Virus record (IMG/VR): IMGVR_UViG_2877291059_000004
Strand: one strand, 5' to 3'
Source: a virus
Taxonomy: Duplodnaviria; Heunggongvirae; Uroviricota; Caudoviricetes
DNA length: 3,663 nt
Under the pieces are notes generated by a model. That model had not been told where the DNA came from. It saw only the letters and a list, made by a program, of their open reading frames with translations, and did no database searches. The stretch's first letter is position 1, and every line of letters starts with the position of its first letter. Shown one piece after another: positions 1-615 of the stretch. The position numbers were made by a program, and so were the translations under genes.

Positions 1-24
1 TCAGGAAGGGATAATTGTCATCGG

Positions 25-306
25 TTTCATCGGTACGGGGACCAAAAGTGTAGGCCAGTACCCCCCCTGTTTTGGTGTTATACGCGTACCAGACGCCAGT
101 GTTGCCGGGTCTTTACTGCCAACGAAACTCCATTGCTCATCAAGTTCGCAGACTAAGACGCCACATCTTTCATCGGTACGGGGACCAAAAGTGTAGGCCA
201 GTACCCCCCCTGTTTTGGTGTTATACGCGTACCAGAGCCAGTGTTGCCGGGCTTTACTGCCAACGAAACTCCATTGCTCATCAAGTTCGCAGATAAGCGC
301 CACATC
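25..306. repeat. Tandem direct duplication, two units of ~143 bp (25-167) and ~139 bp (168-306)
   Basis: Direct reading: the unit beginning tttcatcggtacggggaccaaaagtgtaggccagtaccccccctgttttggtgttatacgcgtacc... occurs twice head-to-tail. The copies differ by four single-base indels (agacgcc vs agagcc, gggtcttt vs gggcttt, gcagactaagacgcc vs gcagataagcgcc). Flanking sequences on either side do not match the unit, so the boundaries are defined. Confidence 0.9.
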
Positions 307-345
307 AGCATGAGCAACGGGCAAAGACGTTATTCGCTTTGGCAT

Positions 346-357
346 GAGTTTTTTAAA
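346..357 (-). other. A6C slippery-type motif at the insA/insB-like junction (IS1-style frameshift site, probably non-functional here)
   Basis: Minus-strand ggcTTTAAAAAACTCatg. In IS1 the equivalent TTAAAAAAC is the programmed -1 frameshift site. Here the insA-like stop TAA lies inside the motif and the frame relationship is altered. Confidence 0.4.
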
Positions 358-522
358 GCCGGATGACGGTGTTAATGCCAATTTTCAGTGTCCTGGCGGT
401 ATCGCAAACCCCGGCGCCATTGAAGGCCATTTCAGTGAGCAGCTCTTTAATGCCCGGCTTACAGGCCTCATAAGTGTAAATGAGCTGAAAACGCGGTGGC
501 AGTCACGGCAGCGAACCAGACA
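353..522 (-). pseudogene. insA-like fragment lacking the N-terminus, with an internal frameshift
   Basis: A CxxC-containing stretch (CLVRCRDCHRVF) is in one frame and the downstream InsA-like stretch (QLIYTYEACKPG...GINTVIRL, stop TAA at 355-353) is in another. No in-frame start codon is present and the first zinc-finger half is missing. The insA-like frame is -1 relative to the insB-like frame, the opposite of IS1, so the canonical programmed -1 fusion cannot occur. Confidence 0.45.
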
Positions 523-615
523 GTTACTTTATATATACCCTCAAAACCGGGGATATCTTTTTCTTTTACATCACCCATCCTCTTCCTCCGCGCGCTTCTT
601 TGCGTAAGTTAGCCA

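Follow-up and report, generated by a model that had tools for sequence, protein, structure and literature searches.

The insertion sequence (IS) DNA at one end of the analyzed window, a 3,663-nucleotide stretch of a prophage from Shigella dysenteriae type 1, very probably represents a known insertion, IS1N interrupted by IS600 within a phage HNH endonuclease gene, the sequence of which was garbled by repeat misassembly in a short-read, reference-guided assembly. Each segment of this DNA can be assigned to a known source, the same locus has a clean structure in strain Sd197, and the differences between the two strains in this part of the chromosome are dense only in IS DNA. We infer that these differences are artefacts rather than real mutations. 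Neither the element nor its insertion is new, since the genome of Sd197 from 2005 contains both in undamaged form, and the odd details of the window are probably not real. Whichever reading holds, the window contains a dead copy of a known IS, and a new IS1 subgroup is unsupported.

All 3,663 of the 3,663 nucleotides of the window are identical to the chromosome of S. dysenteriae type 1 strain Sd1617 (CP006736.1, about positions 2,169,019 to 2,172,681). The minus strand is the coding strand of all genes of interest around the IS region. Pfam and homology identify on this strand ninB (3663-3253), ninE (3256-3035), and an antirepressor gene of the ORF6N/P22AR type (ant, ending at 1413), and on the plus strand a Gp49/HigB-like toxin gene with an HTH antitoxin gene (2411-3038). 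The final intact phage gene ahead of the IS is roi (616-1344, minus strand), which codes for a Roi/Rha-KilAC antirepressor with the Pfam domains ANT and Phage_pRha. In related prophages of Escherichia coli, roi is followed by DUF1364 or HNH genes, rusA, ninH, Q, and lysis genes.

Several features of the phage part of the window lie outside the IS region. The higBA-like pair, the toxin of which belongs to the RelE/ParE superfamily, separates ninE from ant and is encoded on the strand opposite to both; E. coli RMDEC465 has the same cassette (96.8% identity), and most related prophages lack it. Rfam matches on the minus strand include a C4 antisense RNA at 2226-2142 (75.9 bits), isrK at 2329-2253 (70.6 bits), and an a1/b1 C4 target at 2342-2290 (45.3 bits, slightly below the gathering score). 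Together with a sigma70-like promoter at 2365-2336 on the same strand, they provide ant with an upstream antisense control module similar to that of P1 immI. As called, the ant reading frame encodes 287 amino acids (1413-2276, minus strand) and overlaps the C4 RNA. Since its E. coli homologues are annotated at 225 to 227 amino acids, translation probably begins near 2092 (MLTQISVD...). A strong hairpin resembling an intrinsic terminator, GACCCAGC-TTCG-GCTGGGTT followed by a T run, is located between the ant stop codon and the roi start (1395-1376, minus strand).

On the minus strand, positions 640-521 are still phage DNA: roi ends here and is followed by a ribosome-binding site and the initial 58 nt of a gene for a NUMOD4 HNH endonuclease (521-578, with the ATG at 578-576). 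The start of this gene is 95% identical to that in a prophage of E. coli QML220601, which carries no IS there and encodes an intact HNH protein of 169 amino acids after its KilAC antirepressor. The 19 native HNH codons left in the window (MGDVKEKDIPGFEGIYKVT) form a short remnant without a Pfam match; the truncated HNH product of Sd197 (53 amino acids) gives a match to NUMOD4. An earlier reading of the window, made from its sequence only, had placed the IS at 1-575 and had seen a possible IS1 terminus in the heptamer GGTGATG at 575-569. This heptamer spans codons 1 to 3 of the HNH gene (ATG GGT GAT G, where the E. coli homologue reads ATG GAT GAT G), and it was ruled out as an IS end once positions 521-640 had been matched to the intact HNH gene. 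The IS-derived DNA covers positions 1-520, not 1-575.

Most of that DNA (positions 168-515, minus strand) corresponds to nt 143-492 of IS1N, the iso-IS1 of S. dysenteriae, and contains the C-terminal two-thirds of insA and, of the insB frame, roughly the initial 55 codons. In blastn searches, window 515-168 aligns with the IS1N copy of plasmid pECO-6357 at 341 of 350 positions (97%) with two 1-nt gaps (E = 9e-171); the identity to IS1N copies on S. dysenteriae plasmids is 97.8%, and the best matches, at 97.2 to 97.8% identity, carry the RefSeq label 'IS1-like element IS1N family transposase'. Pfam searches with the minus strand detect HTH_Tnp_IS1 (E = 3.4e-25) and DDE_Tnp_IS1 (E = 3.7e-29). 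These matches bear out the IS1 ancestry proposed earlier, but an element 97% identical to IS1N is not a divergent one. Over nt 143-492, the window shares with IS1N the motif TTTAAAAAAC, the HTH of InsA, and the beginning of the InsB DDE domain. It differs from IS1N in that nt 1-142 are missing, two single nucleotides are deleted, 7 are substituted, nt 354-494 are duplicated, and insB is shifted to the +1 frame. When the Sd197 copy of the same locus is taken as the reference, the substitutions are C179T, C196T, A220C, T246C, C253T, C316T, and C337T, 5 of the 7 being C to T, and they are accompanied by the two single-base deletions.

The coding capacity of this piece is limited at both ends. The N terminus of InsA is missing from the window because IS1N nt 1-142, which would hold the left inverted repeat, the beginning of insA, and the zinc ribbon's first CxxC, are absent from the Sd1617 record. 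What is left of the zinc ribbon (PF03811) is its second CxxC (RCRDCH), in another frame, whereas the HTH domain (PF12759) is present. The InsB DDE domain (PF03400, 131 positions) is represented by profile positions 1-50 only, twice, as the window stops at IS1N nt 494. Neither of the terminal inverted repeats, which begin with GGTGATGC, lies within the window. As written, the element cannot encode a transposase, as the sequence-only reading had also concluded.

The two single-base deletions account for its disturbed frames. The first reduces the T5 run of IS1N nt 167-171 to T4 (window 488-491, minus strand), and the loss of this T produces the internal frameshift in insA that had been noticed together with the missing N terminus; both are present in the deposited sequence. 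The second removes an A (IS1N nt 301) between window positions 359 and 358, 2 nt upstream of the IS1 A6C -1 frameshift motif, which is retained, as had been stated, as TTTAAAAAAC at window 357-348 on the minus strand (IS1N nt 303-312). Because of this missing A, the InsA-homologous frame reads ...NTVIRL* with a stop in CGG CTT TAA, and the InsB-homologous frame (TTT AAA AAA CTC) is at +1 relative to it instead of -1. The inverted relation of the two frames, the reverse of that in IS1, therefore exists in the sequence as deposited and comes down to one base.

In canonical IS1 (IS1A and IS1R of E. coli K-12), insA is followed by the A6C slippery site and by insB in the -1 frame, and the termini begin with GGTGATG. 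The same organization is seen in the IS1N copy of Sd197, and the window falls in the IS1N branch, with canonical IS1 presumably only a distant relative. The frame arrangement of the window also has a superficial counterpart in prfB, the gene for RF2, the +1 programmed frameshift site of which is CUU UGA C. With one base lost, the window reads CUU UAA A at 359-352 (minus strand), where tRNA-Leu, by slipping +1 from CUU to UUU, would lead into the insB frame. The window differs from prfB in lacking the Shine-Dalgarno-like stimulator 3 nt upstream and in having UAA-A rather than UGA-C. Given the absence of this stimulator and the truncation of the remaining element, the likeness is probably a coincidence, and the base loss itself is a likely artefact.

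Two further segments complete the IS region. In positions 23-167 (minus strand), IS1N nt 354-494, where insB begins, occur once more in imperfect form. This second copy was found by blastn and a repeat search and carries four single-base insertions, at window positions 158, 153, 110, and 94. With the first copy it forms an imperfect tandem duplication of 143 bp. Tandem Repeats Finder reports nothing in positions 1-700, because the copies number fewer than two full units and contain indels. According to the alignment of the Sd197 and Sd1617 loci, positions 1-22 (minus strand) are junction filler unrelated to IS1N. Within it, window 14-1 resembles IS600 nt 164-177 (13 of 14 positions) and runs past the window edge into a scrambled copy of IS600; the TGA at 3-1 terminates a chimeric open reading frame. 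The sequence-only reading mentioned neither the duplication (167-23) nor the IS600-like first 14 nt.

The junctions of these segments are best described by comparison with Sd197. Between the HNH remnant and the IS1N piece lies a 5-nt island, TCTGG (516-520, minus strand), which corresponds in Sd197 to the final 4 nt of HNH before the IS plus the G that opens the left end of IS1N. Beside this island, the record lacks 78 nt of HNH on one side and IS1N nt 2-142 on the other, so that the left junction in the window reads AAAGTAACTG-TCTGG-TTCGCTGCC. In Sd197, HNH joins the IS1N left end directly as ...GTCGGTCTG|GGTGATGCCTCTAATTAG..., which can also be written as GTCGGTCTG|GGTGATGCCTC. After the GATGAAA of IS1N, the window continues as GATGAAA|GATGTGGCGTC, and the Sd197-type join from IS1N to IS600 is GATGAAA|TGAGGTAGCC.

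An exact search with the Roi protein finds it in three records, Sd197 (CP000034.1), Sd1617, and a draft contig, AXUT01000204.1. This independent contig (1797 bp, seen in four samples) has the Sd197-type HNH-IS1N junction, which speaks for the Sd197 structure; its assembly (GCA_000499065.1) may be that of WRSd3, a vaccine derivative of strain 1617, an origin to which we give no weight here. In Sd197 (L005 10767-12941), the flanking prophage genes are identical to those of the window (3143 nt, 100%), and the order is the same as in Sd1617: truncated HNH, IS1N, IS600, the right part of IS1N, and chromosomal ABC-transporter genes. The HNH gene of Sd197 runs 82 nt further and leaves a 53-codon remnant, compared with the 19 native codons of the window. 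In contrast to the partial copy of the window, IS1N of Sd197 is complete (766 bp), with nt 1-492, then IS600, then nt 490-766, and has both inverted repeats, GGTGATGCCTCTAATTAG and GGTGATGCTTCCAATTAG. It encodes a 90-residue InsA, which matches both the zinc ribbon and the HTH, and, through TTTAAAAAAC with insB at -1, a 231-residue InsAB, in which the Pfam domains Zn_ribbon_InsA, HTH_Tnp_IS1, and DDE_Tnp_IS1 are all present. The orthologous site thus holds an intact full-length element with normal frames, the finding that the sequence-only reading had named beforehand as speaking against a frame-inverted relic. The IS600 copy is likewise clean and intact (1266 bp, 99.5% identical to the annotated IS600 of RefSeq) and is flanked by an AAA target duplication.

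On the right, IS1N of Sd197 adjoins a truncated gene for an ABC-transporter substrate-binding protein, followed by permease and ATPase genes. No 8- to 9-bp target-site duplication of IS1N is found in the Sd197 flanks, GTCGGTCTG and AGTTTTCGT (L005 10898-10906 and 12942-12950). The absence of this duplication, together with the truncated ABC-transporter flank, therefore points to a later IS1N-mediated deletion or recombination. This implies that IS1N marks the event that removed Q and the lysis and late genes of the prophage. The view that phage content gives way to IS-derived DNA here and that Q and the late region are missing holds up as well: beyond IS1N::IS600 there are chromosomal ABC-transporter genes, and no Q or late genes.

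The most probable history of the locus is as follows. The real locus belongs to a lambdoid prophage of S. dysenteriae type 1 that is defective and has the order int, IS600, ninB, ninE, higBA-like pair, ant, roi, and truncated HNH; IS1N, a known iso-IS1 of Shigella, inserted into its NUMOD4 HNH endonuclease gene. IS600 later split IS1N at nt 492 with an AAA target duplication. Because the right end of IS1N abuts the ABC-transporter genes, an IS1N-mediated rearrangement took out Q and the lysis and late genes. Finally, misassembly or patching of the high-copy IS repeats most likely produced the missing nt 1-142, the two 1-nt deletions, the five C-to-T changes, the 143-bp duplication, and the truncated IS600 in the Sd1617 record.

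The distribution of the differences between the two strains is consistent with this last step. Across 20.7 kb around the locus, the 14,702 nt of non-IS DNA show 0 substitutions and 6 one-base indels between Sd197 and Sd1617, and 5 of these 6 indels lie no more than 260 bp from an IS1N edge. Mismatches, indels, and local duplications are dense in every IS interval, and all dense differences are confined to IS DNA; in the IS region of the window, about 495 nt carry 7 substitutions together with 6 indels. Sd197 carries three clean 766-bp copies of IS1N in this region, gap-free and 99.3 to 100% identical. Of their Sd1617 counterparts, one is 778 nt long and has 12 gap positions, another is reduced to a jumble of partial left-end pieces, and the third is the version in the window. 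The two clean 1266-bp IS600 copies of Sd197 have Sd1617 counterparts that share one aberrant structure, in which IS600 nt 164-408 give way to sequence that resumes at nt 284 with 82 to 88% identity, and in which a stray copy of the 3' end is present. A 913-nt aberrant block common to both is 99.8% identical between them and only 82 to 96% identical to true IS600, and both blocks contain the same internal overlap duplication. Independent decay would not be expected to yield one scramble in two IS600 copies, which fits instead the reuse of a single bad repeat contig at both loci. In CP006736.1, scrambled copies of IS600 and IS1N are located at L006 5977-7681, 11178-12620, 17490-18290, and 19250-20040. 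Because every IS copy in 20 kb is scrambled and the two IS600 copies share an aberrant block, these data suggest that repeats cannot be relied on anywhere in this record.

The published history of the Sd1617 genome bears on the same point. Sequencing by 454 gave 604 contigs, Ion Torrent and MiSeq data together gave 562, and a single contig for the chromosome was obtained with Sd197 as the reference (PMC4445032). The authors reported 6505 open reading frames, among them 831 IS1 reading frames with a mean length of 221, compared with 625 (mean 334) in Sd197 and 741 (mean 307) in an independent draft of the same strain, and took the short IS reading frames as biology, a property of the strain (PMC4445032). 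In a later study, Sd1617 was 'not typeable' by MLST (PMC7819885).

Searches for the window's variant in other genomes find it in the Sd1617 record alone. An exact-protein look-up of the 114-residue chimeric reading frame returns only CP006736.1. The 26-nt context of the deleted A has 0 exact matches in 185,579 GTDB species genomes or in JGI metagenomes, collections in which the context of the motif with the A intact does occur. Among the IS1N copies of 1676 E. coli records (complete genomes) and 708 plasmid records (PLSDB), none exceeds 97.8% identity and none has the duplication. Six bases private to the window, at IS1N nt 179, 196, 220, 253, 316, and 337, are absent from the three Sd197 IS1N copies, from plasmid IS1N, and from an IS1 relative that is 85% identical.

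If the deposited sequence were correct, the Sd1617 lineage would, since its split from Sd197, have lost the left end of IS1N and part of HNH, accumulated point mutations and single-base deletions, and duplicated 143 bp of insB, leaving a dead, decayed IS1N. In favour of this reading, the status of CP006736.1 is that of a finished chromosome, decay and frequent IS-associated rearrangement are known from the IS-rich genomes of Shigella, and the shorter IS reading frames were reported as a strain property (PMC4445032). That 78 nt of HNH, apparently unique sequence, have also disappeared beside the IS, for which pure repeat collapse is not an obvious cause, is atypical for assemblers and counts against an artefact. 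So do the C-to-T bias, which is unlike the classic homopolymer error profile of 454 and Ion Torrent, and the fact that the other Sd1617 copies of IS1N are scrambled differently from the one in the window. Real decay nevertheless appears unlikely: it would have to place 7 substitutions as well as 6 indels within about 495 nt while leaving 14,702 nt of unique DNA with no substitution at all, repeat like damage in every IS within 20 kb, and generate an identical aberrant block in two IS600 copies, and its product is absent from all other databases searched, in an assembly that was short-read and reference-guided. It is very unlikely that the sequence is correct because of repeat-targeted mutation in Sd1617, with C-to-T-biased substitutions, 1-nt indels, and duplications arising in IS DNA while unique DNA stayed the same as in Sd197; were it so, one by-product would be the conversion of the -1 A6C site of IS1N into a prfB-like CUU-UAA +1 shifty stop.

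The remaining readings treat the window as a mixture or as a distinct element. Reads from IS1N and from another, related IS1 isoform of the genome could have been merged into a chimeric consensus, and an IS1-family element with about 85% identity to this region does occur in E. coli chromosomes, but the private bases match neither that relative nor any of the three Sd197 copies. A mixed consensus with this particular relative was accordingly rejected, and a chimera of this kind is extremely improbable. An old divergent member or relic of the IS1 family, with a different insA/insB frame relation and a GGTGATG terminus at 569-575, would be in keeping with the frames as written and with the heptamer. 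That reading is almost certainly wrong, given an identity of 97% to IS1N, an inversion that amounts to one missing base, a heptamer that is the HNH start (GATGATG in the E. coli homologue), a true left inverted repeat that lies 82 nt further into HNH in Sd197, and a variant motif context found in no genome or metagenome searched. The known IS1N::IS600 insertion, misassembled in the Sd1617 record, thus remains the preferred explanation.

IS counts, "short IS" statistics, pseudogene calls, and odd frames taken from CP006736.1 should accordingly be treated as biology only where independent sequence supports them. For S. dysenteriae itself, the biological weight of the window is small, as IS1N and IS600 insertions are routine in its decayed prophages.
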